From: Anaerolineales bacterium
GTDB lineage: Bacteria > Chloroflexota > Anaerolineae > Anaerolineales > E44-bin32
Length of the DNA: 64,000 nucleotides
Assembly (NCBI GenBank): GCA_041573795.1
Contig: JBFFQB010000001.1
Span: 18,876 to 82,875, forward strand
Reading direction: 5' to 3'
Position numbers and translations under genes: made by a program. Below are positions 940 to 27,813 of the stretch, one piece after another. Under the pieces are notes generated by a model, which ran no database searches, had not been told where the DNA came from, and was given only the letters and a program-made list of their open reading frames with translations. How positions within the stretch are numbered: position 1 is the stretch's first letter; every line of letters begins with the position of its first letter.

Positions 940-947
940 GCTATGCC

Positions 948-1316: not shown

Positions 1317-1350
1317 TGGATAAGTCCTCCCTCCCCGGCTGATTACGAGC

Positions 1351-3654: not shown

Positions 3655-3681
3655 AAGCCTGTTCCGTAGGAGGATACGCGG

Positions 3682-4968: not shown

Positions 4969-4970
4969 CG

Positions 4971-6092: not shown

Positions 6093-6535
6093 GTAAAAAG
6101 GACAGCTACACTCGTTTGTTATATGCTCGAAACATACCCGTCCTGGGAAGCTTGGCTTATTTCCTATTAAAACTTCTGGGTGTTGAGGTGCCGCGAAGCG
6201 TTCGCCTGGGGAAAGATGTGACGCTTGAACATGGAGGCTTTGGAGTCGTCATCCATCCCAATTGCGAGATCGGTGATCGAGTCAAGATATACCCAGGTGT
6301 AACCCTTGGTCGAGCGGATATCCACCAGCCCATCGAGGACTCCGGGTTTGAGGGAATATCGATCGGAGATGGTGTCATCCTGGCACCGGGGGCCAAGATT
6401 CTGGGTAAGGAAGGCGTCCTGCGGGTAGGGTCCGGTACGGTTGTGGGTGCAAACGCGGTGCTTTTGGAATCAACAGGCCAGAACCAGATATGGGCGGGTG
6501 TCCCGGCTAAATATGTGGGTTCACGCGAGGTTTAA
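6089..6535 (+). CDS. left-handed beta-helix (hexapeptide) acetyltransferase, serine-acetyltransferase-like
   Basis: 148 aa with hexapeptide repeats (IGDRVKIYPGVTLG, IGDGVILAPGAKILG, VGSGTVVGANAVL). Start overlaps the wecB stop (ATGA 6089-6092). Confidence 0.8.
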   Translation: MSKKDSYTRLLYARNIPVLGSLAYFLLKLLGVEVPRSVRLGKDVTLEHGGFGVVIHPNCEIGDRVKIYPGVTLGRADIHQPIEDSGFEGISIGDGVILAPGAKILGKEGVLRVGSGTVVGANAVLLESTGQNQIWAGVPAKYVGSREV

Positions 6536-6592
6536 AGCCTCAAGCGTTGTGATGGCCCGTCCTGTATATTCTTACTTCCCTGGGAAAGTGAA

Positions 6593-7636: not shown

Positions 7637-7654
7637 ATCCAGGCTGCGATATTG

Positions 7655-11058: not shown

Positions 11059-11717
11059 TTCGCCGGATCCTGGAATGGGCCCTGACCATTGCGAAAAGGC
11101 TGGTGGATGACACGATCCCCGAGAAGGATTTGCACGCCTTCCTGCGTAAGAATCTGATGGACCTTGATGCCCGGATCAAATCGGGTGAGGTTTCGATCGA
11201 CGATCCTGCGCTTGGAACCATCTATGAGGGGGTGGATCGATTACGCCGACAAGGATTTTCCGATCTTCCCGACTTTAAATTGGCTACAACATCCAGCGCT
11301 TTGATCAAACCAGAAGGTATGGTGAGATTAGCAGAACCGATCCTTCACCAAGGGATAATTGCCATTGGCCTCCTGGAGAAGACTTTGCTGCAGATGGAGC
11401 AAAATGTAGCACTGGATGAAAGTCAACATCAGAATATGGAAGCCTTGCTTCGCCATATCGAAATTCGACGCCAGGGCGGTTTGGTCTTTAATGGCCAATC
11501 ATCAAACCATGATCGTTGGCTCGCTGTAGCGGTTTTAAGTGCCCTGTTCAGCCGATATGCTGCAGGCGAATGTGATTACCGCTTCTTAAATTCGGCCTTG
11601 AAACTCAATGATTGGGCTTTTCGCTACTTCCGCAAGCGACAAGATCAACCTGGGGGGCTTCCCTATCTAAGGGCGGTCCTTGAGTTAGAAGCGACGCTGT
11701 TGGAGATGACATCCTGA
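11055..11717 (+). CDS. hypothetical protein (alpha-helical; no family recognised)
   Basis: 220-aa ORF coupled to both neighbours (ATGA 11055, TGATG 11715-11719). Confidence 0.6.
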   Translation: MIRRILEWALTIAKRLVDDTIPEKDLHAFLRKNLMDLDARIKSGEVSIDDPALGTIYEGVDRLRRQGFSDLPDFKLATTSSALIKPEGMVRLAEPILHQGIIAIGLLEKTLLQMEQNVALDESQHQNMEALLRHIEIRRQGGLVFNGQSSNHDRWLAVAVLSALFSRYAAGECDYRFLNSALKLNDWAFRYFRKRQDQPGGLPYLRAVLELEATLLEMTS

Positions 11718-12514
11718 TGCGTGTCGCCCTCTTTGCCCCAACATCGAGGAGTTTATACTCTCGTTTGGTTGCATCTGCGATAATTCAACAGGAAAAAATT
11801 GAGCTTGTAGGCATCTTTGTGCGACACCTTTGGTCGATTAAACGCATACGAACGGATTTGCGACGTGAAGGACCGCGTTTACTTCAAAAGGTCTATGAGA
11901 AACTGATCGCACCTGAAGCAATCTCTCAGGGAGAGGCGAACCCTTTAGTAGACGTGGCGAATGAGCGCTTGCTAAATTTTCGGGATCTCATCGATATGAG
12001 CCGCAGGAGCGGCATCCCCTTTTACCGGGTGCGAGACTTTAACTCGAAGCGAACTGAAGCTTCCCTGAAAGGGCTTAAACCCGACCTGGTTGCCTTCACA
12101 GGAGGCGGACTCATTCGAAAGAACATACTAACGGTACCTGCACAGGGGGTCCTTAATTGTCACTCGGGTTTGCTGCCACGTTTTCGCGGCATGGACACCC
12201 TGGAGTGGACAATCCTTGAAGCGCAGGGAGCACTTCCCCAGGTTGGGCTGACCTTGCATTTCATGGATACAGGCGTCGACACTGGCCCCATCCTGCGCCA
12301 ACATCGGGTGGAGTTGAATCCAGGAGAAAGCCTCAACGCTGTCCGAAAACGTCTGGAGCCCGAAATGGTACAGTTGATGTGCCAAGGTGTGGTCGACCTG
12401 CAGCGCGGCATCCTTAAAGCAATTCCACAAGAAAAGTCTGCTGGACGACAATACTTTGTTATCCACCCACGCCTGCAAGAGAAAGCTGAGATGAAGCTGC
12501 AGCGCAGTGCCTGA
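11717..12514 (+). CDS. formyltransferase-family protein (stand-alone catalytic domain, sugar N-formyltransferase/Fmt-like)
   Basis: 265 aa. LNCHSGLLPRFRGMDTLEWTI matches the N-x-H-x-x-LLP-x-x-RG...D formyltransferase core. No Fmt C-terminal tRNA-binding domain. Confidence 0.75.
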   Translation: MRVALFAPTSRSLYSRLVASAIIQQEKIELVGIFVRHLWSIKRIRTDLRREGPRLLQKVYEKLIAPEAISQGEANPLVDVANERLLNFRDLIDMSRRSGIPFYRVRDFNSKRTEASLKGLKPDLVAFTGGGLIRKNILTVPAQGVLNCHSGLLPRFRGMDTLEWTILEAQGALPQVGLTLHFMDTGVDTGPILRQHRVELNPGESLNAVRKRLEPEMVQLMCQGVVDLQRGILKAIPQEKSAGRQYFVIHPRLQEKAEMKLQRSA

Positions 12515-12558
12515 CAGTAGGGTAGCCCCATAGTTTGACTGTGGAGGCACTGCCCCGA

Positions 12559-12567
12559 TGCTATAAT
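12559..12567 (+). promoter_or_regulatory. candidate internal extended -10 promoter (TGCTATAAT)
   Basis: Lies in the 114-nt gap between the formyltransferase and the oxidoreductase. The 14-mer ATGCTATAATCGCC is identical to the one upstream of ftsK (52099-52112). Confidence 0.4.
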
Positions 12568-12628
12568 CGCCTCGAAACTCACCCGGGATTGAGGCTCTTA
12601 TCATCCCTCAACTGCTGTGAAGGAAATT

Positions 12629-14785
12629 ATGAAGCAAGTTGTCCAAGATATACGCAGTGGTGAAACGAAGCTTGTTGACGTTCCGGTACCGGCTGTGAAA
12701 CGCAGAACAGCACTCGTCCGAAACCGGGCATCTTTGGTTTCTGCAGGCACCGAGCGAGCACTGGTGGAGTTTGCAGGCAAAAGCCTGGTTCGGAAAGCGA
12801 AGTCACGCCCCGATCTTGTCCGGCAGGTGCTTGATAAAGCCCGTAGGGAAGGGCTGCTTACAACCATCGATGCCGTGATGAATCGCCTGGACCAGCCTCT
12901 AGCCCTGGGATACTCATCGGCGGGGATAATCGAGGCGTTAGGCGAAGAGATGGAAGGTTTTCAAGTAGGGGATCGGGTCGCCTGTGCAGGAGGGGGACAC
13001 GCTGTACATGCGGAGTATGTTCTAGTCCCCAGGAATCTAATCGCACCCTTACCACAAACCGTCGATTTTCAGGCGGGTGCCTTTGCGACAGTGGGCGCCA
13101 TCGCATTACACGGTTTTCGGTTGGGCGAGGCAGGGGTCCGTGATCGTGTAGCCGTAATTGGAATGGGGCTGCTGGGGTTGCTCGCTGCCAGTATTGCCCG
13201 AGCTGCAGGCTGCGCCGTCATGGGCATTGATGTCGATCGCGATCGGGTTGAACAGGCAAACAAACTTGGCATTGAGACTGTGTTGCGGGAGCAAGCCGAG
13301 GAGGCTTCGCTTAGCTTCACCGATCATCGGGGCTTTGATCTGGTGCAGATCTGTGCTGACACACCCGCCGATGATACTGTCGAGCTGGCAGGCGCCATAG
13401 CGCGTGATCGTGGGGTTGTGGTATCCACAGGCGTTGTGGGCACACATTTACCCCGAAATTTGTATTTCGAAAAGGAGCTGCGCTTCACTGTATCTCGCTC
13501 CTATGGCCCAGGACGTTATGACCCTCGATATGAAGAGAGTGGTGAAGATTACCCTTACGGCTACGTTCGTTGGACTGAAGGGCGAAATATGCAGGCTTTC
13601 CTCGAATTGATTGAAACCAATAGGCTGGATGTTGCACCTTTGATAACGCATGAATTCCCCATTGAAGATGCACTGAAAGCCTACACTTTGATTACGGGCT
13701 CAGGGGATGGTCTGTACACAGGTGTTCTGCTGACATATCCCGACAGACCAGATGAGACTCCAGAACGGAGAGTTGCGCTCAAAGCAGTTCGTCCGGCTAC
13801 GGAGGAAGCTGTGAAGCTGGGCATGCTCGGTGCGGGGAATTTTTCTGGCACTGTCCTGTTGCCCGCGATCAAACGCGTCGCCGGCATTGAATTGGTGGGG
13901 ATTGCCTCAGCCGGGGGGCGTACGGCAACACAAGTAGGTAAGCGATTTAAGTTTAAGTACGCCGCTACGGACACTGAGCAATTGATCAACGATGAGGGCA
14001 TCAATACCTTGGCCATCCTCACACGTCATCATCTGCACGCACAACTTATCCTGGCTGGATTAAAGGCTGGCAAGCACGTATTCTGTGAAAAGCCACTAGC
14101 TTTGAATCAGGATCAGCTCAATGAAATTCAGACCGTCCTGGCATCGAGTTCGAGATTATTGATGGTTGGATTTAACCGCCGCTTTTCCCCCCATGCAAAA
14201 CGGCTGAAAGCATTCTTAAGCACAAGCGATGCGCCCATGGCTATGCAATATCGGGTGAACGCCGGGGTATTACCCGCCAATCACTGGCTTCATGATCCTG
14301 AGCAAGGCGGCGGCCGCATTATCGGGGAGGTTTGCCACTTTGTGGACCTCTTAACCTTTCTTAGTGGGTCACCCCCTATCCGGGTGAGTGCTAGCGCGTT
14401 GCCCAGCGTGGGCGATTACGTTGAGGATAATGTTATCTTGACCTTCTCATTTGGGGATGGCTCTGTTGGGACCGTAAACTACTTCGCTAATGGAGATCGC
14501 TCACTTCCGAAGGAACGCCTGGAGGTGTTTCAGGCTGGAAGAGTAGCCATTCTGGACGATTTTCGGCAGCTTGCCTTGATTGCTAATAGTCGAAGGCGTA
14601 CCTTTAGATCAAGGCTCCGACAGGACAAAGGACATCAAGGTGAATGGGAAGCGTTCGTGGATGCAATCGTGAATTCGCAGGAACCGCCCATTGCCTATGA
14701 TCAACTGTTTGCCGTGACCCGTGCCACCTTCGCGGCTGTTCAAGCCTTGCGTACGGGCGAGTCGGTTTCGATCACAACCCTCTGA
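12629..14785 (+). CDS. bi-domain oxidoreductase: N-terminal MDR/Zn-alcohol-dehydrogenase-like + C-terminal Gfo/Idh/MocA
   Basis: MKQVVQDIRSGETKLVDVPVP start. GHAVHAEYVLVP and GMGLLGLLAA (MDR Rossmann). The second half has MLGAGNFSG...CEKPLAL (Gfo/Idh/MocA EKP motif). Confidence 0.85.
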   Translation: MKQVVQDIRSGETKLVDVPVPAVKRRTALVRNRASLVSAGTERALVEFAGKSLVRKAKSRPDLVRQVLDKARREGLLTTIDAVMNRLDQPLALGYSSAGIIEALGEEMEGFQVGDRVACAGGGHAVHAEYVLVPRNLIAPLPQTVDFQAGAFATVGAIALHGFRLGEAGVRDRVAVIGMGLLGLLAASIARAAGCAVMGIDVDRDRVEQANKLGIETVLREQAEEASLSFTDHRGFDLVQICADTPADDTVELAGAIARDRGVVVSTGVVGTHLPRNLYFEKELRFTVSRSYGPGRYDPRYEESGEDYPYGYVRWTEGRNMQAFLELIETNRLDVAPLITHEFPIEDALKAYTLITGSGDGLYTGVLLTYPDRPDETPERRVALKAVRPATEEAVKLGMLGAGNFSGTVLLPAIKRVAGIELVGIASAGGRTATQVGKRFKFKYAATDTEQLINDEGINTLAILTRHHLHAQLILAGLKAGKHVFCEKPLALNQDQLNEIQTVLASSSRLLMVGFNRRFSPHAKRLKAFLSTSDAPMAMQYRVNAGVLPANHWLHDPEQGGGRIIGEVCHFVDLLTFLSGSPPIRVSASALPSVGDYVEDNVILTFSFGDGSVGTVNYFANGDRSLPKERLEVFQAGRVAILDDFRQLALIANSRRRTFRSRLRQDKGHQGEWEAFVDAIVNSQEPPIAYDQLFAVTRATFAAVQALRTGESVSITTL

Positions 14786-14798
14786 GATTGCACAACGT

Positions 14799-16934
14799 AT
14801 GGTTATGCGCCTGCTTCGCGCCTTGCAAGAGTTGGGTCTGCTAACTTTGAGCAAGTATGCCTTATACAGCTTGGCACTCCGCAGCGGGTACTATCGCTGG
14901 CGGTTGCCAGTGCAATCGTGGTCGCAGATTAATCTATCCGACCTGCTTCGCAGCAAGATACCAAACAACCCTGAAGATTACGCTGCTTATCGCAAGGAAA
15001 ATCAAACAACATCAATTTTCAAGCTTGATCCGGGACAGCAGCCTGTTCTCCAGAAGGCGAGAAGAAGGATCGAATCTGAAGCGAATTCGATCAGCGAGGG
15101 TAGCTTTCAACTTTTTGGAATTGACAACGTTGAGCTTGGTTCTCCGCCAGGTTGGCATGCCTATGCCCCTCTGGCTGGTGCTAGTGGCGCTGCTCCGATG
15201 CAGGATCACCGTCATTGGAGTCTTTACACGCTCGAAGACTTGCCGCATGACGTGAAACTGCTATGGGAAGCTTCGCGGTTCGGGTGGGTTTACCCTTTGG
15301 CACAGGCCTACGCATTCAGCGGAGAAGACCGTTATTTCGATGATTTTTGGACCCTGTTCTCTTCCTGGCTTGATGAAAATCCACCGCAGGTGGGATTGCA
15401 TTGGTACTCAGCCCAGGAAGTCGCCATTCGCTTGATCGCTTTGCTGTACGCGTTTCATACCTTCTCAGACAGGCTCAATGAATTCCCTGAAGGGTATGTG
15501 AAACTTCTTGCTGCGATTGCAATCCACGCACAGAGGATTCCACCCACCTTGTCCTATGCAGAAGCCCAGAACAACAACCACCTGCTGGTGGAAAGCGCGG
15601 CGCTTTATCTGGTCGGCACAGCGCTTCCAGAATTGAAGAGTGCTGCAAATTGGAGGCTGAAGGGGCGCCGTCTCTTTGATAGGAGCGTTGAAAAACAGAT
15701 CTTTCCTGATGGTGGTTATGTTCAGCACTCATCCAATTATCAACGACTGGCATTGCAAGTTGGCATCCTGGTTGCCCATGCAGCCGAAGTTGAGGGGCAG
15801 CCATTGAATGAGATGGCGCTTAAAGCGCTTAGAGCGATGGCAGCATGTCTGGCGGCCTTGGTGGATGAAACGCAAGGGACCAGCCCTAACTTCGGGCCCA
15901 ATGATGGCGCTATCTTAGTCCCCCTCAGTGCACGACCGTTCGCAGATTTTCGGCCCACAGTCCAGGCGGCCTGGCAACTGCTCTTGGGTGAGCGATGCTA
16001 TCCTCCCGGACCATGGGATGACTTTGCTGCATGGCTGGGTGTTGGGAAGGAAGGGGATAAACTCCCCACTTCAGAAGTTGTTGCGCTAACATCTGTCGAC
16101 CTGCCCTACGCCGGACTATATACTGCCCGAAAAGACAGGCTAAGAGCATTTCTTCGGGCGGTGACGTTTAGAAATCGGCCCGGGCATAGCGATCAACTGC
16201 ATTTGGATATCTGGTACGGTGACGTCAATCTTGCCCGTGATCCGGGAACGTATCTTTACAATGCTTCTCAGCCCTGGGACAACGCATTATCCGGTTCCTG
16301 GTGTCACAATACGGTCACCGTTGATAGACGAGACCCCATGCTCAGGGCCGGGCGATTTCTCTGGCTATCCAGGTCTCATGCGCTAGCGAATAGGTACCGG
16401 CTGGGTGCCGAAGCGCCCATTGAACTGTTGTTTGCTCGTCACCGTGCCCGCCAATGGCCAGGGCTGCAACATCAACGCTCAGTGGCAATCCTGGGAAGCG
16501 ATATCATCATTGTCTCCGACGATATCGTCGGCCAGGGCAGGCACCAGCTTACCCTCAACTGGAATTTGGTCGACCTGCCATGGCAAGTCGGGTCTGATAG
16601 GATCACGTTGCGCCATGAAGCCTTCCAGACCTCTCTTGATTGGTCAGTGGAAGGTGGGTCTTGGGGTTTATACCGGTCGGGAAAATGTGTTGACGGTGAT
16701 CCTGTCGTTGAGAATCCGGCTACCTTTGGATGGCATTCTCCTACCTATGCACAGAAAGTACCGGGCTTGCAATTGGTTATCACAACCGATCAGCAGCTTC
16801 CGCTGCGCATGATCAGCACCTGGAGCTTTGAGGGAGCGGATACAAGCAAGCTCAACATCGGCTGGCTACCTATCGAGGAAAACCGAGTTGCGTTTAAAGC
16901 TATAGCATGGGGTCCGCACGAGTGGGCGATTTGA
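14799..16934 (+). CDS. heparinase II/III-like (alginate-lyase superfamily) protein
   Basis: About 711 aa. The (alpha/alpha) toroid-like N-half has ...NNHLLVESAALY...GGYVQHSSNYQRLAL..., and the beta-rich C-half has HSDQLHLDIWYG and WCHNTVTVD, typical of Hepar_II_III. ATG 14799 follows the stop at 14785. Confidence 0.8.
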   Translation: MVMRLLRALQELGLLTLSKYALYSLALRSGYYRWRLPVQSWSQINLSDLLRSKIPNNPEDYAAYRKENQTTSIFKLDPGQQPVLQKARRRIESEANSISEGSFQLFGIDNVELGSPPGWHAYAPLAGASGAAPMQDHRHWSLYTLEDLPHDVKLLWEASRFGWVYPLAQAYAFSGEDRYFDDFWTLFSSWLDENPPQVGLHWYSAQEVAIRLIALLYAFHTFSDRLNEFPEGYVKLLAAIAIHAQRIPPTLSYAEAQNNNHLLVESAALYLVGTALPELKSAANWRLKGRRLFDRSVEKQIFPDGGYVQHSSNYQRLALQVGILVAHAAEVEGQPLNEMALKALRAMAACLAALVDETQGTSPNFGPNDGAILVPLSARPFADFRPTVQAAWQLLLGERCYPPGPWDDFAAWLGVGKEGDKLPTSEVVALTSVDLPYAGLYTARKDRLRAFLRAVTFRNRPGHSDQLHLDIWYGDVNLARDPGTYLYNASQPWDNALSGSWCHNTVTVDRRDPMLRAGRFLWLSRSHALANRYRLGAEAPIELLFARHRARQWPGLQHQRSVAILGSDIIIVSDDIVGQGRHQLTLNWNLVDLPWQVGSDRITLRHEAFQTSLDWSVEGGSWGLYRSGKCVDGDPVVENPATFGWHSPTYAQKVPGLQLVITTDQQLPLRMISTWSFEGADTSKLNIGWLPIEENRVAFKAIAWGPHEWAI

Positions 16935-16935
16935 C

Positions 16936-18147
16936 GTGGAAATCCTACTGATACATCAGGCTTTTACGGCATTGGATGAACCTGGTGGGACGCGGCATCA
17001 TGAATTAGCGCGCCATCTTCAAAATTTGGGCCACCAACTTACCATTATTACGGGTCAGGGAAGCTACCTCACTGGGGAGCGCACAACAGCAGGCAGCGGG
17101 GTTGTGCGGCAGGTGGATGACGTGGGGGTAATCATCTTGCGTATCCCTGGGTATCTTGCGTGGCATCGCTCATTTTTCCACCGCGTATTGAGTTTTCTCA
17201 GTTTTATGGTTCGGGCGTTCTTAGAAGGGCTGCGTGCAGGCGAGGTTGAACTTGTGTGGGGTACGTCTCCTCCGATCTTCCAGGCTGTCAGCGCAGCCCT
17301 GCTGGCGAAATGGCGCCAGGTCCCATTTGTGTTAGAAGTACGAGATCTCTGGCCCTATTTTGCCATCGCCAGTGGGGTGCTGCGGTCAAAGCTGCTCATC
17401 GGCATGTCAAACTGGCTTGAACGAAGGCTATATCAGGCTGCAGATGTGGTAGTCGTAAACTCACCAGGGTTCAGCGAGTATGTCAGTCAGCGTGGTGCGA
17501 AGCGCGTTGAAGTTATCCCGAATGGTGTTGACTGCAATACAGACTTAGCGGTAGAGGTTAAAGAAGATCTGCGAGAGCAACTGGGTATTCAGGAAAGTTT
17601 CATCGTTGTCTATGCGGGTGCACATGGATTGTCAAACGATCTGGTAACAGTCCTGAAGGCCGGCGCGTTGCTTAAAGCGCGAGAAGACATTCAGCTGGTA
17701 TTGATTGGAGCAGGTAAAGAAAAGGCGAATTTAGTGGCAAGGACTCAGGCTGAGAAGCTAACCAACGTCCATTTTGTGGATCCTGTCCCGAAGATGCATA
17801 TGCCCGCAATACTTGCACAAGCAAACGCGGGTCTGGCAATATTGATGGCCATCGATGCATATAAAACGACGTTTCCGAATAAGGTATTTGATTACATGGC
17901 GGCTGGACTCCCGGTTCTTTGTGCGATCGACGGCGTCATTCGAGAAGTGGTTGAGCAAGGAGCAGCTGGCGTATTCGTAGAACCTGGAAACCCCGAAGCG
18001 CTAGCGCAGTCGATACGGATGCTTGCGGAGGATCGAGAGCGAGCCACAAAGATGGGCGCGAATGGCCGCCGTTGGGTTTGCGACCATTATGACCGTAGCG
18101 CGCTGGCGATTGATCTCGCCACGATCATGCAAGGCCTACTCACCTGA
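16936..18147 (+). CDS. glycosyltransferase family 4, WbuB/WcaI-like
   Basis: 403 aa. MEILLIHQAF...EPGGTRHHELARHL N-terminus is typical of WbuB-like GT4. GTG start 1 nt after the upstream stop. Confidence 0.82.
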   Translation: MEILLIHQAFTALDEPGGTRHHELARHLQNLGHQLTIITGQGSYLTGERTTAGSGVVRQVDDVGVIILRIPGYLAWHRSFFHRVLSFLSFMVRAFLEGLRAGEVELVWGTSPPIFQAVSAALLAKWRQVPFVLEVRDLWPYFAIASGVLRSKLLIGMSNWLERRLYQAADVVVVNSPGFSEYVSQRGAKRVEVIPNGVDCNTDLAVEVKEDLREQLGIQESFIVVYAGAHGLSNDLVTVLKAGALLKAREDIQLVLIGAGKEKANLVARTQAEKLTNVHFVDPVPKMHMPAILAQANAGLAILMAIDAYKTTFPNKVFDYMAAGLPVLCAIDGVIREVVEQGAAGVFVEPGNPEALAQSIRMLAEDRERATKMGANGRRWVCDHYDRSALAIDLATIMQGLLT

Positions 18148-18950: not shown

Positions 18951-19136
18951 ATGAAAGAACCCCTTGAATTCTATGATGTGAAGTCCAAGACCAAGTTCAC
19001 ATCCGCTGATTGGCGGATTGAGAAGAAAGTATCCGACAAGGGTCGTGTGCAGTTCTTTGCGGTGACAAAGGCGCCTGCGGGCACACACGAAGCTTGGCGT
19101 ATTGTTGCTAAGGACTTCGGCGAAGCAAATATGTAG
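18951..19136 (+). CDS. small conserved-looking hypothetical protein (61 aa, mildly basic)
   Basis: MKEPLEFYDVKSKTKFTSADWRIEKKVSDKGRVQFFAVTKAPAGTHEAWRIVAKDFGEANM. Strong RBS (TAGGAGGATTGTAATG). Followed by a 12-bp perfect hairpin. The 97-aa track ORF start (18843) lacks an RBS. Confidence 0.6.
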   Translation: MKEPLEFYDVKSKTKFTSADWRIEKKVSDKGRVQFFAVTKAPAGTHEAWRIVAKDFGEANM

Positions 19137-19162: not shown

Positions 19163-19200
19163 AATACGAGCCGCCCCAGGTACAGGGAGCGGCTCGTATT
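19163..19200. terminator. strong stem-loop (12-bp perfect stem AATACGAGCCGC / GCGGCTCGTATT)
   Basis: Perfect inverted repeat 19163-19174 / 19189-19200 with a 14-nt loop, preceded by a smaller hairpin ACCCAA-CAAG-TTGGGT. It separates the small gene from the E1 alpha operon. Confidence 0.6.
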
Positions 19201-19273: not shown

Positions 19274-20194
19274 ATGAAATCCACCCCTGCTGATTCATTC
19301 CGGCTGATGCTGCAAATTCGGCGCTTTGAAGAACGAGTGCTCGAACTATTTCCACGCGGCTTGTTTTATGGAACGACCCACACCTACATCGGGCAGGAAG
19401 CAAATGCCGTTGGCGTGCTGCATTGGCTTGAAGAAAGCGATATTGTTGTCAGCAATCACCGATGTCACGGGCATTTTCTGGCTTATGGTGGTTCTATGCA
19501 CGGTCTGGCGTCTGAGTTGATGGGTCGCACAACCGGTATCTGTGCGGGACGTGGGGGCAGCCAACATATCCAGTGGCGAAATTTCTATGCCAACGGAATC
19601 CTGGGCGGAACGGTTCCCCTCGCTGTGGGCATGGCGCTTGCCGTGAAGAAGCAATCCCAGGGGTCGGTTGTTTTTTCCTTCATGGGCGATGGCACGCTTG
19701 GTGAAGGCGTGGTTTACGAGAGCTTGAATATGGCTTCCCTCTGGGAGCTGCCCGTATTCTTTGTGCTTGAGAACAACCGTTATGCCCAAAGCACGCCTAT
19801 TAAGCTTCATCTTGCCGGGGAAATTGCCAAAAGGTTCGAGGCTTTCGGGATCCGCACAATGCATATTGACAGTACAGATGTGGACCTCATCCGTAACACA
19901 AGTGAAGAATTAATCACCAGCGTGCGAAAGGCAGCAGGTCCAAGGGCGCTCATCATTGATACCTATCGCTTTGCGCCTCACTCAAAGGGGGATGATGTCC
20001 GTGATCTGGAGGAGATAGAGCAATTCAGGCGGAAAGACCCGCTGCAGCTTCAAGCGGCCAAGCTTAATCCGACAACGGTCGAGGAGCTTGAAACCGAGGT
20101 TATGGAACAGGTTGAACAAGCGTTCTCAACTGCACAGCAGGACCCCGTCGCAGACGCGGGCGCTGTCACAGCGGCTATGGATGAAACCGCATGA
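19274..20194 (+). CDS. thiamine-diphosphate-dependent 2-oxoacid (pyruvate/acetoin-type) dehydrogenase E1 component, alpha subunit
   Basis: 306 aa. LMLQIRRFEERV..., TPP motif GDGTLGEGVVYESLNMASLWELPVFFVLENNRYAQST (GDG-x26-NN). Confidence 0.88.
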   Translation: MKSTPADSFRLMLQIRRFEERVLELFPRGLFYGTTHTYIGQEANAVGVLHWLEESDIVVSNHRCHGHFLAYGGSMHGLASELMGRTTGICAGRGGSQHIQWRNFYANGILGGTVPLAVGMALAVKKQSQGSVVFSFMGDGTLGEGVVYESLNMASLWELPVFFVLENNRYAQSTPIKLHLAGEIAKRFEAFGIRTMHIDSTDVDLIRNTSEELITSVRKAAGPRALIIDTYRFAPHSKGDDVRDLEEIEQFRRKDPLQLQAAKLNPTTVEELETEVMEQVEQAFSTAQQDPVADAGAVTAAMDETA

Positions 20195-21186
20195 CGGGTA
20201 TATTGCAGGCGTTGAATGATGGATTGCGCCACAGCCTGGAAGCCTCCGCTGCGGTTTACCTGCTGGGTGAGGACATCCTTGACCCTTACGGTGGTGCCTT
20301 TAAAGTTGTTAAAGGGCTGTCATCGGACTACCCTGATCGAGTGATCACAACACCAGTTTCAGAGGCCGGCATTGTTGGTGTGAGTGTTGGCATGGCGCTA
20401 CGAGGCTTGCGACCAGTCGCAGAGATCATGTTTGGAGATTTCCTGATGCTGGCGGCAGATCAACTGATGAATCATGCCGCGAAATTTCGCTGGATGAGCA
20501 ACGACCAGGTGCGCGTGCCGATAGTTGTGCGCACTCCTATGGGGGGCTATCGGGGCTACGGACCGACACATAGTCAGACTTTGGAGAAACATGTTTTGGG
20601 TACGGCCGGGCTGCGCGTTCTCGCAGCCAATACGCTGGTGAACCCCGGAACAGTATTATCCCGGGCTATCCTGGAAGATGATGACCCTGTACTCTTTGTC
20701 GAGCACAAGCTGCTTTACCCCCAAATGATGTTCTCGGCGGGGAGCGAATTTGAAAGTCACCAGCTTCGTGGTCGTTATCCCTGGTCAATCCTGCGTATTG
20801 CTGGAGCACCGCGAGCGGATATAACGCTAGCAACATACGGTTATATGGCTGAGATCGGACGCGAAGTGATGGTTCGGTTGGCTTATGAGCGAGAGATCTT
20901 CGTAGAAATGGTGGTCCCAACGCAATTAAGCCCTTTCAGGCTCGATCCCCTGATGGAGAGTGCTGGGCGCACCGGAAGAGTTCTTGTGCTAGAAGAAGGC
21001 ACGTTGAATTTAGGCTGGGGGGCGGAATTGGCTGCCCGGCTCCTGGAGACACTTGATCAAGATATTCAATTTCGCCGAGTAGCCGCACGCAATATGCCCG
21101 TCGCAGCAGCGGCAAAGCTCGAGCAGCATGTGTTACCCCAGGAAGACGATATTTTTTCAGCTGCTCTCACTTTAATGAAGCCTTGA
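20191..21186 (+). CDS. 2-oxoacid dehydrogenase E1 component, beta subunit (transketolase-like Pyr + C-terminal domains)
   Basis: 331 aa. LLGEDILDPYGGAFKVVKGL...VITTPVSEAGIVGVSVGMALRGLRPVAEIMFGDF. ATGA overlap with the alpha-subunit stop. Confidence 0.88.
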   Translation: MTGILQALNDGLRHSLEASAAVYLLGEDILDPYGGAFKVVKGLSSDYPDRVITTPVSEAGIVGVSVGMALRGLRPVAEIMFGDFLMLAADQLMNHAAKFRWMSNDQVRVPIVVRTPMGGYRGYGPTHSQTLEKHVLGTAGLRVLAANTLVNPGTVLSRAILEDDDPVLFVEHKLLYPQMMFSAGSEFESHQLRGRYPWSILRIAGAPRADITLATYGYMAEIGREVMVRLAYEREIFVEMVVPTQLSPFRLDPLMESAGRTGRVLVLEEGTLNLGWGAELAARLLETLDQDIQFRRVAARNMPVAAAAKLEQHVLPQEDDIFSAALTLMKP

Positions 21187-21282
21187 GCTACACTTATATA
21201 CTGTTAGAGCCCAATAATACGGTCATGCATAACAGCAAAGATATTCTGAGATTTGTGAATAAGGTCGTCTACGGAGAAGGGT

Positions 21283-22404
21283 ATGGCTGAGGCAGATGAG
21301 GTTCTAATCCCCTTGCTCAATCCCAATGAGCCCGAAGTCCAGATTGTCGAAACATTGGTAGAGAATGGACAAAAGGTTGTTCTTGGTGAAGTATTGTGCA
21401 TCGTTGAGACCACCAAGTCCTCCCACGAGGTTGCAGCAGAGCGAGCAGGCTACGTCGTGTCCTTCAATCACACACGCGGGGATAAGCTTCGAGCGGGCGA
21501 TCGATTGTGCTGGCTCGCTGAAAAGTCCGGATGGACAGCCCCGGCAGCGGTAGAGCCGGTTTCCGAGATGAGGCGTGAGGGAATCCCTCAAGGTATGCGT
21601 ATCACCGAACCAGCGTTGGAATTGGCGAAATCACTGGGGATAGAGCTTGAGGAACTGCCAGGCGACAGGCTTATCACCGAGGCGGAGGTACAGGGGGTCC
21701 TTCGGCAGCGAAAGGAAAAGGTCGTAATGCCTTCCGATCAGCCACTGGATAGCTCGACTCTTGTCATCTATGGCGGGGGTGGGCATGGGAAAGCATTAAT
21801 CGATCTGATTCGTGCAATAGGCTCGCATAGCATCGCCGGGATCATCGACGATGGTTTGGAGCCAGGGATGGAGATTATGGGGGTTCCCGTGCTGGGAGGC
21901 GCCGATAAACTTTCATCTTTATCGCAGGATGGTATCCGCCAAGCGATTAATGCTGTTGGCGGCATTGGGGATGTGAACCGTCGCATTCAGGTGTTCAAGC
22001 GTCTTGAGGCGCAGGCGTTTGTATTTCCGACTTTGGTTCACCCAAGCGCATGGGTTGAATCCAGCGCAGACTTGCGCGCAGGCGTTCAGGTTTTTCCGCA
22101 TGCCTATATCGGCAGCGAAGCGCAGGTCGGCTTGGGGGTCATTGTCAACACCAGCGCGGTGATTTCGCATGATTGTAGACTCCAGGATTATGTGAATATC
22201 GCCCCGGGGGCATTGCTGGCAGGTAATGTCTCCATCGGGGAGGGTGTGTTGGTGGGCATGGGGGTTACGATCAATCTCAATGTATCGGTCGGTGCGGGTG
22301 CAAAGATTGGAAATAGCGCAGTCGTGAAAACAGACGTCCCTGCGGGACAGGTCGTTCGGGCGGGAACTAGCTGGCCTCCAGAAACGAATGATCCTAGGAG
22401 GTAG
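21283..22404 (+). CDS. chimeric protein: lipoyl/biotinyl-type hybrid-motif domain + peripheral-subunit-binding-like segment + NeuD/PglD-family hexapeptide sugar acyltransferase
   Basis: aa 5-80: VLIPLLNPNEPEVQIVETLVENGQKVVLGEVLCIVETTKSSHEVAAERAGYVV...GDRL (hairpin Lys45 = nt 21415-21417). aa 107-140: ITEPALELAKSLGIELEELPGDRLITEAEVQGVL (PSBD-like). aa 160-373: LVIYGGGGHGKALIDLI...AVISHDCRLQDYVNIAPGALLAGNVSIGEGVLVGMGVTI (NeuD/PglD). Confidence 0.8.
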   Translation: MAEADEVLIPLLNPNEPEVQIVETLVENGQKVVLGEVLCIVETTKSSHEVAAERAGYVVSFNHTRGDKLRAGDRLCWLAEKSGWTAPAAVEPVSEMRREGIPQGMRITEPALELAKSLGIELEELPGDRLITEAEVQGVLRQRKEKVVMPSDQPLDSSTLVIYGGGGHGKALIDLIRAIGSHSIAGIIDDGLEPGMEIMGVPVLGGADKLSSLSQDGIRQAINAVGGIGDVNRRIQVFKRLEAQAFVFPTLVHPSAWVESSADLRAGVQVFPHAYIGSEAQVGLGVIVNTSAVISHDCRLQDYVNIAPGALLAGNVSIGEGVLVGMGVTINLNVSVGAGAKIGNSAVVKTDVPAGQVVRAGTSWPPETNDPRR

Positions 22405-22409
22405 CCTCT

Positions 22410-23609
22410 TTGACAGAAGAAAACGCTAACGGTTCTATGTCGATCCCCATGTCTTCCCCGGATTTAACAGAAGCCGAGCGAAACGCGGTGCTGGAGGTAT
22501 TAAATACATCTAGGCTGAGTATGGGACCTGAAGTGGAGAGCTTTGAGCATGCCGTTGCCAAGCGCGTTGGCGCCAAGCATGCCATCGCCGTCAGCTCGGG
22601 TACGGCGGGACTGCACTTGTGTGTCCGTGCGGTCGGGATAGGTGAGCGAGACCTGGTGATCACCACACCATTCTCGTTTGTTGCTTCGGCCAATGTGATG
22701 ATCTACGAGCGTGCCATCCCCGTTTTCGTTGATGTCGATGCTCATACCGGCAACATCGATCCGGACTTGGTCGCACAAGCGGTTGCGGATCTTCAAGCAG
22801 GTGGTGAGGAAGCATCGCGCTGGTTGCCGCGTAAGGGTGCAGAACAAGCTGGAAGCTTGAAAGCGTTGCTGCCCGTTGATGTATTTGGCCAACCGGCGGA
22901 TTACACGTCGCTGAAGGCGATCTGCCGGCAGCATGACTTGGTGATGATCGAAGACTCATGTGAAGCATTGGGCTCGATCTATAGCGGCACACCTGCTGGC
23001 ATGTTGGGCGACCTTGGAGTCTTTGCCTTCTACCCCAACAAGCAAATCACGACGGCGGAAGGGGGTATGGTCGTCACCGATTACGAGCCTTTTGCGGACG
23101 CGATCCGCTCAATGCGCAATCAGGGACGAGCGCCAGGTGATACCTGGTTGGAGCATACTTACCTTGGATACAACTATCGACTGGATGAAATGAGCTCTGC
23201 TCTTGGCCGTGTCCAGATGGAACGGCTCGATGAGCTGCTTGAGAAGCGTGAGAGAGTTGCTAACTGGTATCAAGTACGTTTGGAAAGCCTTCCTTTTGTT
23301 GAGCCTCTGGCCATGTCGCCCTCAACTGATCGCATGAGTTGGTTTGTCTATGTCGTTCGTTTTGAAAAAGGGGTCGACAGGTTTGAGGTCGCACAAGCGC
23401 TAAAAGCACGTGGGGTTCCTTCCCGTCCTTATTTTGTGCCCATTCATACCCAGCCCTACTTTATTGAGCGCTTTGGATACCAGACTGGCGATTTTCCGAT
23501 CACGGAGGATCTGGGGAACAGAAGCCTGGCACTGCCTTTTTCAGGTGTGATGACCGAGGCGCAGGTTAACTTCGTGGTTGAGCAAATCAACAAGGTGGTA
23601 AAATACTAA
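22410..23609 (+). CDS. DegT/DnrJ/EryC1/StrS-family PLP aminotransferase (PglE/WbpE-like nucleotide-sugar aminotransferase)
   Basis: 399 aa. MSSPDLTEAERNAVLEVL..., AFYPNKQITTAEGGMVV (PLP-Lys motif), GYNYRLDEMSSALG. TTG 22410 has an AGGAGG RBS 7 nt upstream (ATG 22437 is the alternative). Confidence 0.9.
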   Translation: MTEENANGSMSIPMSSPDLTEAERNAVLEVLNTSRLSMGPEVESFEHAVAKRVGAKHAIAVSSGTAGLHLCVRAVGIGERDLVITTPFSFVASANVMIYERAIPVFVDVDAHTGNIDPDLVAQAVADLQAGGEEASRWLPRKGAEQAGSLKALLPVDVFGQPADYTSLKAICRQHDLVMIEDSCEALGSIYSGTPAGMLGDLGVFAFYPNKQITTAEGGMVVTDYEPFADAIRSMRNQGRAPGDTWLEHTYLGYNYRLDEMSSALGRVQMERLDELLEKRERVANWYQVRLESLPFVEPLAMSPSTDRMSWFVYVVRFEKGVDRFEVAQALKARGVPSRPYFVPIHTQPYFIERFGYQTGDFPITEDLGNRSLALPFSGVMTEAQVNFVVEQINKVVKY

Positions 23610-23868: not shown

Positions 23869-24636
23869 GTGGCACGACAGCAAATATTGACATTGATGAC
23901 GAACGCGACAGCCACCATTTTGACAGGAAATCTGATCCAAATTCGCAACCTGGTGAAGGTCTACCCTACGACCGCTGGCGATGTTAAAGCCCTTCGGGAT
24001 ATTCACTTTGATATCGAGAAGGGTGAATTCGTGGCGATCTATGGAAAATCAGGTGCAGGCAAATCCACACTGATCAATATGATCACCGGGATTGACATAC
24101 CCACCTCCGGTGAGGTGATTGTCGATCAAGTTCCGTTGCACGCCATGGATGCCGATGCACTTTCGCGATGGCGCGGGGAGCATGTGGGGATTGTTTTCCA
24201 ATTCTTCCAATTGATCCCTTCCCTGACGCTGATCGAAAATATTACCCTTCCTATGGATTTCAATAACACTTATCGTGGCCCGGCCCAAGTTGAGCGGGCG
24301 CTTGCGTTGCTTGATGCGGTTGGCATCGCCGAACATGCGTTCAAGGTGCCCGCCAAGGTTTCTGGTGGGCAGCAGCAAAGAGTGGCGATCGCCCGCGCAC
24401 TTGCCAATGACCCCAAAGTCATCGTCGCCGATGAGCCAACAGGCAATCTTGATTCAACTACTGCGGCAGGCATTCTGGATGTCTTCTCAGGGCTTGTAAG
24501 ACAGGGAAAGACTCTCATCGTGGCCACACACGATGAAGAGATTGCACGCCGGGCTTCTAGGGTTATTGAAATCTCAGATGGATCGATCGTCTCTGTAAAG
24601 AAGAATAGTGTCGAACGCGTGGAGCCGGTGGCCTAG
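23869..24636 (+). CDS. ABC transporter ATP-binding protein (MacB/LolD/FtsE-type NBD)
   Basis: Walker A GKSGAGKST, signature VSGGQQQRVAIARAL, Walker [13 protein letters not shown]. Start is GTG 23869 or ATG 23896. Confidence 0.9.
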   Translation: MARQQILTLMTNATATILTGNLIQIRNLVKVYPTTAGDVKALRDIHFDIEKGEFVAIYGKSGAGKSTLINMITGIDIPTSGEVIVDQVPLHAMDADALSRWRGEHVGIVFQFFQLIPSLTLIENITLPMDFNNTYRGPAQVERALALLDAVGIAEHAFKVPAKVSGGQQQRVAIARALANDPKVIVADEPTGNLDSTTAAGILDVFSGLVRQGKTLIVATHDEEIARRASRVIEISDGSIVSVKKNSVERVEPVA

Positions 24637-27045
24637 ATGCGGATACCTGCGCGCTGGATGAAAGTTCTCAAAGAGATCTGGGAGAATAAAACCCGCTCGA
24701 TCCTTGTAGTGTTGTCGCTGGCAATCGGCGTTGCGACGGTTGGGATGATTAACACCGCTGCCATCTATGTAAAGCGCGATCTATTCGGGGCATTTGAACG
24801 AGGTAACCCGGCTAGCCTACACATGTATCTTTCACCGTTCGATGAGGGAGTAGCTGCTGCGGTTGAGAAGATGCGTGATGTTGAGGCGACGCAACCGCGC
24901 CGGGTTAAGACGATTAAGTTTTTAACCGAGGCAGGGGAATGGGAAGAGATCTCGTTAAACGCCTTCCCCGACTATGAAGACATCCAGATAAATATACCCA
25001 CACTGGAAGAGGGGCGCTTGTCGCTTTCGGTACGCGAGATTGCGATCGAACGGCAATCTGCGGAAGCCCTGGGACTAAGGGTGGGCGATGAGCTTACCTT
25101 GAAGAATGATGATGACCGCCTATTTGCAGTCCGAGTGGTCGGGATTGTGCATGATCTGTATGTGATGCCGTACGAATTGCTTGGTTCGGCAACGGCGTTC
25201 TTGAGCATGGACACGCTAGCGTGGATGGGGGATCCGTCTCAGTACAACCGGCTGGACATCATTGTCTCGGAAATGAGATCGGATAGAGATCATGTGCTCT
25301 CCGTTGGCGAGAAAATTGAAACGCAAGTGCTCACACCTGCAAGACATACCACTTACAGGACTGAGATACCCGGGATCGGATCGGACCCCGGAAGGCACTG
25401 GGCTGAAGATCAAATTAATGGTCTATTACTCATCTTCCAGATTATGGGTGTTATGGCGATCCTCTTGAGTAGCGGGTTAGTCGTGAACACGATATCCGCC
25501 ATCATCATTCAGCAGATCAAGCAGATTGGCATCATGCGTGCGATTGGCGCGGTGAGGCGGCAGATCGTTGGTATGTACTTGTTTAACGTCTTGATCTTCA
25601 CAATCTTGGGTTTGCTGGTGGCGATTCCGTTAGGGCTGGTGGGGGCGTGGTGGCTGGCATCCTTTGCCTCCAATTTTGCGAATTTCGATATTCAATCAAT
25701 TAACCTGCCCCTGCAGGTCTTGGGTTTACAGGTCATCCTGGGGCTGATGCTTCCTCTTGGTGTAGCTATGCTGCCGGTCCTTTCGAGCACAAGCATCTCG
25801 GTATATGACGCTATTTACCAGTACGGTATTGGTACTAAAGGCAAGAACGGTTTCGTCGATCGGTTATTGATTCGAGTCCGCAATCTAACACCGCCCGTGT
25901 TATTTTCCTTGCGGAACACATTCCGGAACAAGGCGCGCCTCACCTTTACGCTTGTCACTTTGACACTTTCTGGCGCAATGTTTATCAGTGTATTCAGCAC
26001 GCGCGCATCCTTGTCTTCTCAAATTGATGAGATCTCTCGTTATTTAAATTTTGACGCCGCTATTGCTGTGCCGGGGGGTTCGATGCGCGCAACGGTAGAG
26101 CGAGAAGCACGCCGTATTGAAGGCGTCAACGTGGTTGAAAGCTGGTCGGTTGATAGCGCGACGATTCAATATGCCGATGGTAGGGAGAGCGAACAGCTCC
26201 AGGTTATCGGCTTACCCCATGATGCCCAGACGATCGACCCTTTGCTCGTCGAAGGGCGTTGGCTCGCTATGGGTGAATCACTGGGGGTCGTTATTAACGA
26301 GGACCTTACCGGTGTGGAAACTGCAGTTGATGTCGGGAGCGAAATCACCTTGAAGGTTGGCCAAAAGGAACAAACCTACGTTGTTGTCGGTGTTGTTTCT
26401 AAGCATCTATCGGGAGCGCGGGTATACATGACCCCAACAATGTTTGGAAGATTGACAAACCGCTACAACCAGGCTGATTCGGTGCGCGTGCGCCTGGATG
26501 CCAACGTATTGAGCGCGCCCAAAGAACAGGACTTGCTTGGCGCCCAGCTAGAGACCCGCTTCGAAAACGCTGGTATTAGCCGAAGCGACAGCACAACCCA
26601 CTACGCAATTTTTGGAGATTTTACCGATGTATTCGATATTGTCCTGATTATCCTCATCATTATGGCCGTACTGTTAGCGGTCGTTGGGGGGCTAGGATTA
26701 ACGGGCACATTGTCGATCAACGTCCTCGAACGAACCCGTGAAATTGGCGTATTGCGAGCGGTTGGCGCTTCCAACACCTCCGTTCGTAGGGTGGTATTGA
26801 CCGAAGGTGTAGTGATTGGATTCGTAAGCTGGGTTTTGGGCGCGTTGCTTTCCGGGCCAGCAGGTTTGGTCTTGGCTGCTGCCATTGTTACCGCCATGTT
26901 GAAAGCTGAACTGAGTTACCAGTACTCTTTCCCCGGGTTGCTCATTTGGCTTGTCGTCATTGGTGTGATAGGCGTTCTAGCCAGCCTGGGACCGGCACAA
27001 CGTGCAGCCTCTTTGACAGTCAGGGAAGTGTTGGATTATGAGTAG
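24637..27045 (+). CDS. ABC transporter permease with two FtsX-type domains (MacB-like pseudo-dimer)
   Basis: 802 aa. Two blocks of TM helices with the conserved ...IGIMRAIGA... and ...IGVLRAVGAS... FtsX motifs, each preceded by a large extracytoplasmic domain. Confidence 0.88.
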   Translation: MRIPARWMKVLKEIWENKTRSILVVLSLAIGVATVGMINTAAIYVKRDLFGAFERGNPASLHMYLSPFDEGVAAAVEKMRDVEATQPRRVKTIKFLTEAGEWEEISLNAFPDYEDIQINIPTLEEGRLSLSVREIAIERQSAEALGLRVGDELTLKNDDDRLFAVRVVGIVHDLYVMPYELLGSATAFLSMDTLAWMGDPSQYNRLDIIVSEMRSDRDHVLSVGEKIETQVLTPARHTTYRTEIPGIGSDPGRHWAEDQINGLLLIFQIMGVMAILLSSGLVVNTISAIIIQQIKQIGIMRAIGAVRRQIVGMYLFNVLIFTILGLLVAIPLGLVGAWWLASFASNFANFDIQSINLPLQVLGLQVILGLMLPLGVAMLPVLSSTSISVYDAIYQYGIGTKGKNGFVDRLLIRVRNLTPPVLFSLRNTFRNKARLTFTLVTLTLSGAMFISVFSTRASLSSQIDEISRYLNFDAAIAVPGGSMRATVEREARRIEGVNVVESWSVDSATIQYADGRESEQLQVIGLPHDAQTIDPLLVEGRWLAMGESLGVVINEDLTGVETAVDVGSEITLKVGQKEQTYVVVGVVSKHLSGARVYMTPTMFGRLTNRYNQADSVRVRLDANVLSAPKEQDLLGAQLETRFENAGISRSDSTTHYAIFGDFTDVFDIVLIILIIMAVLLAVVGGLGLTGTLSINVLERTREIGVLRAVGASNTSVRRVVLTEGVVIGFVSWVLGALLSGPAGLVLAAAIVTAMLKAELSYQYSFPGLLIWLVVIGVIGVLASLGPAQRAASLTVREVLDYE

Positions 27046-27054
27046 GGAAAATAG

Positions 27055-27813
27055 ATGCAGCTAAGGCGTTCGAATGGTAACGGCCGAAAGGCAAGCTTAA
27101 AGGTAAGCGGTCGTAATAATGATAATGGGATTGTGGCGCAGAATGGCTCGCTCATCACTTTTGAGCAGGTCTCAAAACGCTACAACACATCGGCAGGAGA
27201 CTTCACCGCCCTCCAGAATGTGAATTTGTCCATCGATCGGGGCGAGTTCGTCTCAATTGTAGGCAAATCAGGAAGTGGAAAGACAACACTGATCAATGTC
27301 CTTACCGGTATTGATCAACCCAGCGAGGGCAAAATCATTGTTGATGGCACTCCAGTGCATCATCTGAAGGAAGGACAAAGGGCCGTATGGCGTGGGCGCA
27401 CAATGGGGATTGTGTTTCAGTTTTTCCAGCTGCTGCCCACCCTTACTGTACTTGAAAACGTCCGCATCCCAATGGATTTCAGCGGTCTTTATGAAAATGG
27501 TGCAAGGGATGAACGTGCTCACTACCTGCTCAGCCTGGTGGGGCTTCACGCTCAGGCACACGATCTTCCTGCGCAGCTCTCGGGTGGGCAACAGCAAGCC
27601 GTGGCTATCGCCCGAGCGCTAGCAAATGACCCGCCGATCATCGCGACGGATGAGCCTACAGGAAACCTCGATTCGGCTTCGGCTGGCAACGTGATCCGCT
27701 TATTTGATACGCTTGTGGAAGACGGGAAGACGATCCTCATGGTGACCCATGATGATGACCTGGCGAACAGGGCAACGCGCACGATCGCACTCGCAGATGG
27801 CAGAGTTATCTAA
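27055..27813 (+). CDS. ABC transporter ATP-binding protein (second, paralogous MacB-type NBD)
   Basis: [36 protein letters not shown]. Clear paralogue of 23869-24636. Confidence 0.9.

Follow-up and report, generated by a model that had tools for sequence, protein, structure and literature searches.

Why should a glycan biosynthesis locus encode a pyruvate dehydrogenase (PDH)-type E1 enzyme, and what would that enzyme acylate there? The question was raised by a 64,000-nt stretch of contig JBFFQB010000001.1 from an Anaerolineales bacterium (hereafter the window, to which all coordinates refer; the features listed all lie on the + strand). Four same-strand genes in this window encode the alpha and beta subunits of a thiamine diphosphate (ThDP)-dependent E1, a 373-aa fusion protein and a DegT-type aminotransferase. 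An earlier note on this DNA had described the 373-aa protein as a chimera of a lipoyl-like domain, a segment resembling a peripheral-subunit-binding domain (PSBD) and a NeuD/PglD-type acyltransferase, and had proposed that an acyl group generated by E1 travels on the lipoyl arm to an amino sugar. The gene organization given in that note was borne out in the sequence, namely four co-directional genes, an ATGA overlap coupling E1 alpha to E1 beta, a GDG-x26-NN motif in E1 alpha (residues 138–168) and a hairpin at 19163–19200; the gap between E1 beta and the fusion gene is 96 nt. On the evidence set out below, we consider it probable that the E1 pair and the fusion form a 2-oxoacid-dehydrogenase-like complex, in which a left-handed beta-helix N-acyltransferase would serve as the E2 core and deliver the acyl group directly to an amino sugar.

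Domain structure of the fusion protein and its E1 partner

The fusion carries about 155 N-terminal residues beyond a plain PglD-type enzyme, comprising the lipoyl domain and the PSBD. Pfam recognized Biotin_lipoyl, PglD_N (residues 160–241) and Hexapep, the protein scored above the cut-off of the NCBIfam NeuD/PglB/VioB model (TIGR03570; 178.7 bits, cut-off 160.8), and residues 4–93 matched the NCBIfam acetoin-E2 model NF011457 (5.5e-7). The N-terminal 80 residues, which the earlier note had set as one test of its proposal, both score and fold as a lipoyl barrel. A sequence profile matched the E. coli E2p lipoyl domains in the Protein Data Bank (PDB) at 6e-24, whilst Foldseek aligned the barrel with the human E2p L2 domain (3crk_C) at a TM of 0.82. 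The domain has a pLDDT of 80–95 in the AlphaFold2 model. Its predicted lipoyl-lysine is Lys45 of an ETTK motif (codon 21415–21417), and the context E-T-T-K-S is without flanking methionines, which biotinyl domains have on either side of their lysine.

An Ala/Pro-rich linker (aa 81–103) precedes the PSBD. The single linker sequence gave no match to Pfam E3_binding at E <= 1. A profile of residues 101–146, built from 68 family members and run against the PDB, matched solved PSBDs of PDH and 2-oxoglutarate dehydrogenase (OGDH) E2 chains (1w4i, 1e-5; 2eq8_C, 2.8e-5; 2eq9_C, 5e-5; others weaker), and the AlphaFold model places two helices in this segment (109–117 and 133–143, pLDDT ~80–85). By family profile and model helices, the segment formerly termed PSBD-like is a PSBD. 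The same profile also matched residues 39–74 of PDB 7qjm_A, a chain named 'alpha/beta-hydrolase (202)', at 4e-4; judged from this match, that chain is a further PSBD joined to a catalytic domain of non-CAT fold.

The acyltransferase half consists of a nucleotide-binding N-domain (aa 158–243) and a left-handed beta-helix (aa 244–360), the latter presumably trimeric. Its profile matched PerB (2e-36) and the acetyltransferase domain of Neisseria PglB (1.6e-35) in the PDB, as well as VioB and PglD, and Foldseek returned the same relatives for the C-terminal half (PerB 4ea7, TM 0.88–0.89; Neisseria PglB 4m99; VioB; PglD). His296 (codon 22168–22170) is invariant across the family and aligns with the catalytic His141 of PerB; it is the predicted catalytic residue of the fusion. 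The AlphaFold2 model of the whole protein (77-sequence alignment, mean pLDDT 78) is composed of a confident barrel (1–80), the two helices, a confident Rossmann-like PglD N-domain and the beta-helix. Pfam, NCBIfam, profile and Foldseek evidence agree on the chimera, and the succession of lipoyl domain, Ala/Pro-rich linker, PSBD and PglD-type domain indicates that the fusion is an E2 arm set on a PglD-type core.

The closest solved relative of E1 alpha is human PDH E1 alpha (5e-47), followed at a distance by the alpha subunit of branched-chain 2-oxoacid dehydrogenase (BCKDH; ~1e-20). The histidine of 'YRFAPHS' in E1 alpha aligns with that of human 'YRYHGHS', and in comparison with human and Thermus E1 the glutamate of 'PVSE' and the histidine of 'THSQ' in E1 beta align with those of the solved E1 beta chains. 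In E1 enzymes, the two histidines act in reductive acylation of lipoamide and the glutamate activates ThDP. Retention of both histidines, as read from the alignments, is what would be expected of an E1 acting on a lipoyl arm. Pyruvate is the likeliest substrate, because E1 alpha is nearest to PDH-type E1 alpha.

No canonical E2 core was identified: PF00198 matched neither the fusion nor its neighbours, and the DHRxxDG motif was absent from the window and from 90 related loci (1.3 Mb). The fusion is therefore the sole E2-like partner available to E1. As the earlier note had stated, the window also holds no E3 (dihydrolipoyl dehydrogenase); its ORFs of >= 400 aa all belong to other families and none has the disulfide motif.

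A cofactor-bearing arm is not the only possible role for the N-terminal barrel. It might be vestigial, structural or regulatory, for example a tether for E1 through the PSBD, with acetyl-CoA as the donor and E1 otherwise employed. Biotin/lipoyl-like barrels without a cofactor exist in other proteins, Foldseek against the PDB matched BCCP domains to this barrel about as well as lipoyl domains, and neither a lipoate ligase nor an E3 was found nearby. We nevertheless consider this explanation improbable, given that the lysine is retained within an E-T-x-K context in 113/115 diverse representatives, that the fusion preserves a PSBD and an Ala/Pro-rich linker, both typical of a functional swinging arm, and that E1 has not lost the histidine pair specific to the lipoamide half-reaction.

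Distribution of the E1–fusion cassette

The fusion has thousands of relatives in the databases, where its names go no further than 'NeuD/PglB/VioB family sugar acetyltransferase' or 'acetyltransferase EpsM', so that automatic annotation misses the fusion. The 120 closest homologues (52–75 % identical) share its architecture except where entries are truncated, and 119 of them keep Lys45. An exhaustive search of 50 %-identity clusters returned 444 representatives at E <= 1e-30. Full-length fusions made up 114 of the best 150 clusters, and Lys45 was retained in 113 of these 114, down to 29 % identity, so the lysine named in the earlier note is indeed kept in orthologues.

Searching a species-representative collection of 185,579 genomes yielded 188 matching stretches, the best 80 of which were used for synteny, counting only loci with a long enough flank. 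In Chloroflexota, E1 beta was present within 3 kb upstream of the fusion (<=3 kb) in 72/74 loci and E1 alpha upstream in 62/65, whilst a DegT aminotransferase followed downstream in 63/76 and a PglC-like gene preceded in 47/58. Genes lying between E1 and the fusion in two loci (L021 and L024) were considered as a possible E3, lipoate ligase or canonical E2, and proved unrelated; they specify a protein with NHL repeats and a histidine kinase of TPR type. The 80 loci belong to Chloroflexota, mostly Anaerolineales, bar one contig labelled Methanosarcinales (JAIWHF010000009.1, binned as 'Methanosarcinales archaeon'; locus L002). Gene order and spacing on this contig (PglC, small ORF, E1 alpha, E1 beta, fusion, aminotransferase) are as in several Anaerolineales loci, and its fusion is 55 % identical to that of the window; mis-binning of Chloroflexota DNA probably explains the label.

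We also inspected nine distant loci with fusions 29–37 % identical to that of the window, from Bacteroidota (Chitinophagaceae, Lewinella, Dokdonia), Omnitrophota, Bradymonadaceae (L085) and untyped metagenome contigs. E1 lay immediately upstream of the fusion in 9/9, either split or as a single alpha–beta polypeptide of 640–685 aa, and the E1 stop and fusion start frequently overlapped by 4–11 nt. The E1 alpha of these cassettes is 42–54 % identical to that of the window; set against the 29–37 % of the fusion, this indicates that E1 and fusion have been inherited together. The E1–fusion neighbourhood is thus conserved across at least four phyla, a conservation on which the proposal in the earlier note depended.

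The surroundings of the distant cassettes vary. The fusion occupies the LegH/PglD slot of a legionaminic-acid-type cluster (L082), and the PglD slot of a locus ordered E1ab–fusion–PglC–PglE–PglF that has no other PglD (L090); both clusters are otherwise of standard bacillosamine or legionaminic type. A Chitinophagaceae cassette (L081) belongs to a dTDP-sugar-type cluster. Lewinella sp. IMCC34183 (L084) carries PglF-, PglE- and PglC-like genes, and an Omnitrophota metagenome-assembled genome (L089) a nonulosonic-acid cluster with two DegT aminotransferases. In each of these last two, a plain PglD-like gene (~205 aa) accompanies the fusion within one cluster (L084, 9001–10745; L089, 9001–12026), which speaks for the fusion having another acyl donor or another product. 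The two gene sets suggest two distinct N-acylations.

Plain PglD-type genes served as a control. None of 52 plasmid records with such genes spans the lipoyl/PSBD part, and no E1 (0/3) adjoins the plain genes in the inspected plasmid loci, which are Leg, PglC/D/E/F-like and dTDP-sugar clusters; E1 is tied to the arm-bearing form. Two representatives in the searches were short. One (P0195) begins at a contig end with E1 alpha adjoining and is probably a truncated fusion; the other (P0167) is on a 2.4-kb contig. Two long proteins, P0147 (865 aa) and P0234 (638 aa), were considered as possible E1–fusion polypeptides and turned out to be tandem PglD-like repeats without E1. Together with P0246 (425 aa), they carry two to four PglD_N plus beta-helix units per polypeptide and no lipoyl domain, and P0147 has an additional CoA_binding domain.

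In two Bacteroidota loci, one of them from Dokdonia (L083, 1–10113; L088, Dokdonia, 1–10110), a cassette of fused E1ab and lipoyl-PglD stands at the end of non-ribosomal peptide synthetase (NRPS) genes. The set comprises condensation, adenylation, peptidyl carrier protein, thioesterase and phosphopantetheinyl transferase functions; L088 has a TonB receptor in addition, and neither locus has sugar genes close to the cassette. Cassettes of this kind may additionally N-acylate peptides or siderophore-like products. These loci bear on a second use that could be imagined for the E1 pair, a ThDP carboligation that would give a keto sugar a two-carbon branch, with the fusion merely N-acetylating. PDH-E1-like pairs without E2 or E3 occur in deoxysugar pathways, branching of this type has reportedly been proposed for some of them in branched-sugar antibiotics (e.g. 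AviB1/AviB2), and the keto-sugar intermediate that it needs is required in the pathway. It would, however, leave the lipoyl arm and PSBD superfluous, yet both are fused to the acyltransferase and kept with E1 across phyla, and it does not suit cassettes beside NRPS genes without sugar genes nearby. The preference of the earlier note for acyl transfer over branching is upheld, since C2 branching leaves a lipoyl-lysine and PSBD fused to an N-acyltransferase unexplained, and we regard branching as very improbable.

Proposed transfer of the acyl group and its sugar context

In the mechanism that we propose, housekeeping enzymes would lipoylate Lys45, and the E1 heterotetramer would dock on the PSBD by analogy with Gram-positive-type PDH/BCKDH complexes. 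E1 would then decarboxylate a 2-oxoacid, with pyruvate giving acetyl as the likeliest case, and reductively acylate lipoyl-Lys45. The S-acyl-dihydrolipoyl arm would enter the donor tunnel, normally the site of the pantetheine arm of acetyl-CoA, where His296 would activate the amine of a nucleotide amino sugar supplied by the DegT enzyme, giving the N-acyl sugar. An E3 encoded elsewhere would re-oxidize the dihydrolipoyl arm, and the PglC-like transferase would load the sugar phosphate onto a lipid carrier. That the acyl donor differs from acetyl-CoA is argued from the fused arm and the neighbouring E1. The arm-to-sugar N-acylation of the earlier note is thus supported on comparative grounds, with independence from CoA presumed.

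An intermediate role for CoA should also be weighed. CoA might take over the acyl group from the arm in or close to the beta-helix site, and the acyl-CoA might be used there or by another enzyme; the cassette would then be a local, dedicated generator of acyl-CoA and the beta-helix domain an unconventional E2. Acyl transfer to CoA is universal among classical E2 enzymes, and the C-terminal half is typical of the PerB/PglB/VioB/PglD group, which uses acetyl-CoA, being 32–35 % identical to the CoA-bound structures 4ea7, 4m99 and 7txp (TM 0.85–0.89). Against this, a single domain would need to perform both thioester exchange and amide formation, the loci give no sign of a consumer of unusual acyl-CoA, and the arm is fused to the N-acyltransferase itself, of which direct delivery is the simplest reading. 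We consider the CoA-mediated route unlikely.

Several observations count against direct delivery from a lipoyl arm. The PSBD is detectable with a profile only and has a loop shortened by three residues, and the C-terminal beta-helix is poorly modelled (pLDDT ~45–55). The beta-helix domain resembles ordinary acetyl-CoA-dependent PglD/PerB, and if the acyl group is merely acetyl then the gain over acetyl-CoA is not evident. Two Chloroflexota loci (L041 and L056) have a fusion without an adjoining E1, and no aminotransferase was found within 6 kb in 13/76 loci. Lastly, the E3 disulfide motif was absent from 1.3 Mb of related loci, and LplA, LipB and LipA motifs were absent from the window and the related loci. 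Re-oxidation and lipoylation of the arm must therefore come from genes elsewhere, and turnover would depend on housekeeping genes outside the locus; many Anaerolineae are fermenters.

A broader version of the proposal has, in our estimation, about an even chance of being correct. It holds that E1 and fusion constitute a portable cassette of two or three genes for making amides straight from a 2-oxoacid, with the lipoyl arm replacing CoA and an acyl group that is perhaps not acetyl. The cassette would serve bacillosamine, legionaminic-acid and Wbp-type glycan routes and adjoin NRPS genes in some Bacteroidota. One possibility is that the neighbouring aminotransferase supplies E1 with the 2-oxoacid that it releases, so that glutamate would yield 2-oxoglutarate and a succinyl group, and alanine would yield pyruvate and an acetyl group. 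If so, amination would drive its own N-acylation.

The features of the locus are collected in Table 1. The DegT/PglE-type aminotransferase and the upstream PglC-size transferase, both named in the earlier note, were matched by their Pfam families; the aminotransferase also scored 302 bits against NCBIfam PseC and 282 bits against LegC, each under its cut-off. It would supply the amine for subsequent acylation, and the PglC-size transferase is likely to be the first membrane step, taking the acylated amino sugar. The description 'PglC/PglD/PglE-like module' fits the window only loosely, as a PglF-type 4,6-dehydratase is missing from the window and from 78/80 related Chloroflexota loci.

Table 1. 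Positions of the cassette and associated features in the window
Feature	Position	Strand	Basis or remark
Bi-domain oxidoreductase (ADH_zinc_N + GFO/IDH/MocA)	12617..14785	+	Pfam
PglC-size polyprenyl-phosphate phosphoglycosyl transferase, 222 aa	18160..18828	+	PF02397 Bac_transf 1e-62
Small ORF, 61 aa from ATG after AGGAGG	18952..19136	+	tblastn conservation, no Pfam match
Stem-loop, 12-bp perfect stem	19163..19200	+	After 61-aa ORF, before E1 alpha
E1 alpha, ThDP-binding subunit, 306 aa	19274..20194	+	PF00676 E1_dh 4e-54
E1 beta, 331 aa	20191..21186	+	Transket_pyr 2.8e-28, Transketolase_C 3.3e-14
Fusion gene, 373 aa	21283..22404	+	
Fusion: lipoyl domain, aa 1-80	21283..21522	+	Biotin_lipoyl (residues 19-76) 7e-12
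Fusion: PSBD, aa 104-145	21592..21717	+	Family profile against solved PSBDs; model helices
Fusion: PglD/PerB-type acyltransferase	21754..22362	+	Profile, Foldseek, PglD_N, Hexapep
DegT/PglE/PseC-type PLP aminotransferase	22410..23609	+	DegT_DnrJ_EryC1 6e-108

In the absence of a 4,6-dehydratase, the bi-domain oxidoreductase is the candidate source of the keto sugar. It matched the NCBIfam UDP-GlcNAc 3-dehydrogenase model NF040723 at 8.6e-20, under the cut-off, and is kept ~8 kb upstream in about 25 related loci. This oxidoreductase and a heparinase II/III-like protein are encoded in the region 3682–18147, together with a UDP-sugar 6-dehydrogenase, a UDP-GlcNAc 2-epimerase, several GT4 glycosyltransferases and a formyltransferase-like protein. 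From their families, the upstream genes, the aminotransferase and the fusion would together supply all five activities of a route of WbpA/B/E/D/I type. Conservation of the WbpB-like oxidoreductase upstream makes a 3-amino sugar a possible acceptor here. The candidates for the window are thus either a 3-amino sugar made via this oxidoreductase or a Pgl-like (bacillosamine-type) 4-amino sugar.

Part of this region forms a block (12617–18147) of oxidoreductase, heparinase II/III-like protein and WcaI-like GT4 that about 25 Chloroflexota loci keep ahead of their PglC-like gene; the heparinase II/III-like protein could be an epimerase or lyase. Two consecutive ORFs of 350 and 220 aa (10006–11717) in the glycan locus matched no Pfam family at E <= 1 except for a chance-level SdpA match. 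The 61-aa ORF, which follows the PglC-like gene and precedes E1 alpha, was kept in place in about 25 Chloroflexota loci at 49–90 % identity by tblastn. The stem-loop that follows it has a folding energy of -28.6 kcal/mol (z = -5.6; 0/200 shuffles equally stable) and is without a following T-run, and a terminator scan made no call there. Directly 3′ of the aminotransferase, at 23869–27813, genes for two ABC ATPases flank one for a multi-pass permease of 802 aa; the group appears MacB/FtsX-like, as judged by Walker and signature motifs of the translated proteins. A counterpart of the first ABC ATPase, 73 % identical, lies downstream in the closest related locus (L001) as well.

Relation to known systems

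No description of a lipoyl-armed NeuD/PglD-type sugar acyltransferase was found in the open full-text literature, a search that left subscription literature uncovered, and direct acylation of amino sugars from a 2-oxoacid is apparently undescribed chemistry. Three candidate links to published work were set aside. A paper on N-glyceroyl and possibly N-glycolyl nonulosonic acids in Tannerella forsythia makes no mention of E1 or ThDP genes, one on a Tenacibaculum O-antigen has no PDH or lipoyl terms, and the flagellin 'lipoylation' reported in Enterobacteriaceae means fatty acylation.

If the proposal is correct, this would be the first 2-oxoacid-dehydrogenase-type complex with a left-handed beta-helix E2 core and an N-acylated amine as product, and the E2 scaffold could be rebuilt on a wholly different trimeric fold. 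Many bacteria may then acylate amino sugars from a 2-oxoacid without acyl-CoA, and the presence of PDH-like E1 genes in glycan loci would be explained. E1 with a lipoyl-PglD fusion would also be a genomic marker of unusual or CoA-independent N-acylation, applicable to bacillosamine, legionaminic-acid and diacetamido-uronic-acid pathways.

Like PDH and BCKDH complexes of the Gram-positive/mitochondrial type, the cassette has a ThDP E1 of heterotetramer type whose catalytic residues are complete, and it combines a PSBD and an Ala/Pro-rich linker with a lipoyl domain whose reactive lysine sits in a beta-turn. In contrast to these complexes, its core is a PglD-type beta-helix instead of the CAT fold (2-oxoacid_dh), no E3 is nearby, an amine in place of CoA is predicted to receive the acyl group, and the context is that of glycan or NRPS genes as opposed to central metabolism. 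It falls outside the classical complexes because it lacks a CAT-fold core and a local E3. The fusion likewise resembles PglD, PerB, Neisseria PglB, VioB and LegH in its PglD_N domain, left-handed beta-helix and aligned catalytic histidine, and it too adjoins a DegT aminotransferase and a PglC-like transferase. Those plain enzymes, however, are of ~200 aa and use acetyl-CoA, and E1 was absent from all three control loci (3/3). The extra arm and the accompanying E1 set the fusion apart from a plain NeuD-family enzyme.

Replacement of an E2 core with retention of the arm is also seen in acetoin dehydrogenase, whose AcoC has a lipoyl domain joined to an acyltransferase of alpha/beta-hydrolase fold. 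The acetoin-E2 model NF011457 matches the arm of the fusion, whilst AcoABC differs in its core fold, its CoA acceptor and its catabolic role.

By analogy, the nearest functional precedent is found in QncN/QncL/QncM of quinocarcin biosynthesis, NapB/NapD and SclQ1–4 of scleric acid biosynthesis, in which glycolyl is loaded on a lipoyl arm and passed to an acyl carrier protein (ACP) (PMC6335953). As in the cassette, an E1-like ThDP enzyme there works with a lipoyl-bearing acyltransferase and the acceptor is not CoA; those systems, in contrast, have an E2-type acyltransferase domain and an ACP thiol as acceptor (PMC6335953). The cassette has a PglD-type beta-helix, a predicted amine acceptor and no ACP gene. 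If our reading holds, transfer directly to an amine would be a third fate of acyl-lipoyl, besides CoA in the classical complexes and ACP in those of Qnc type.

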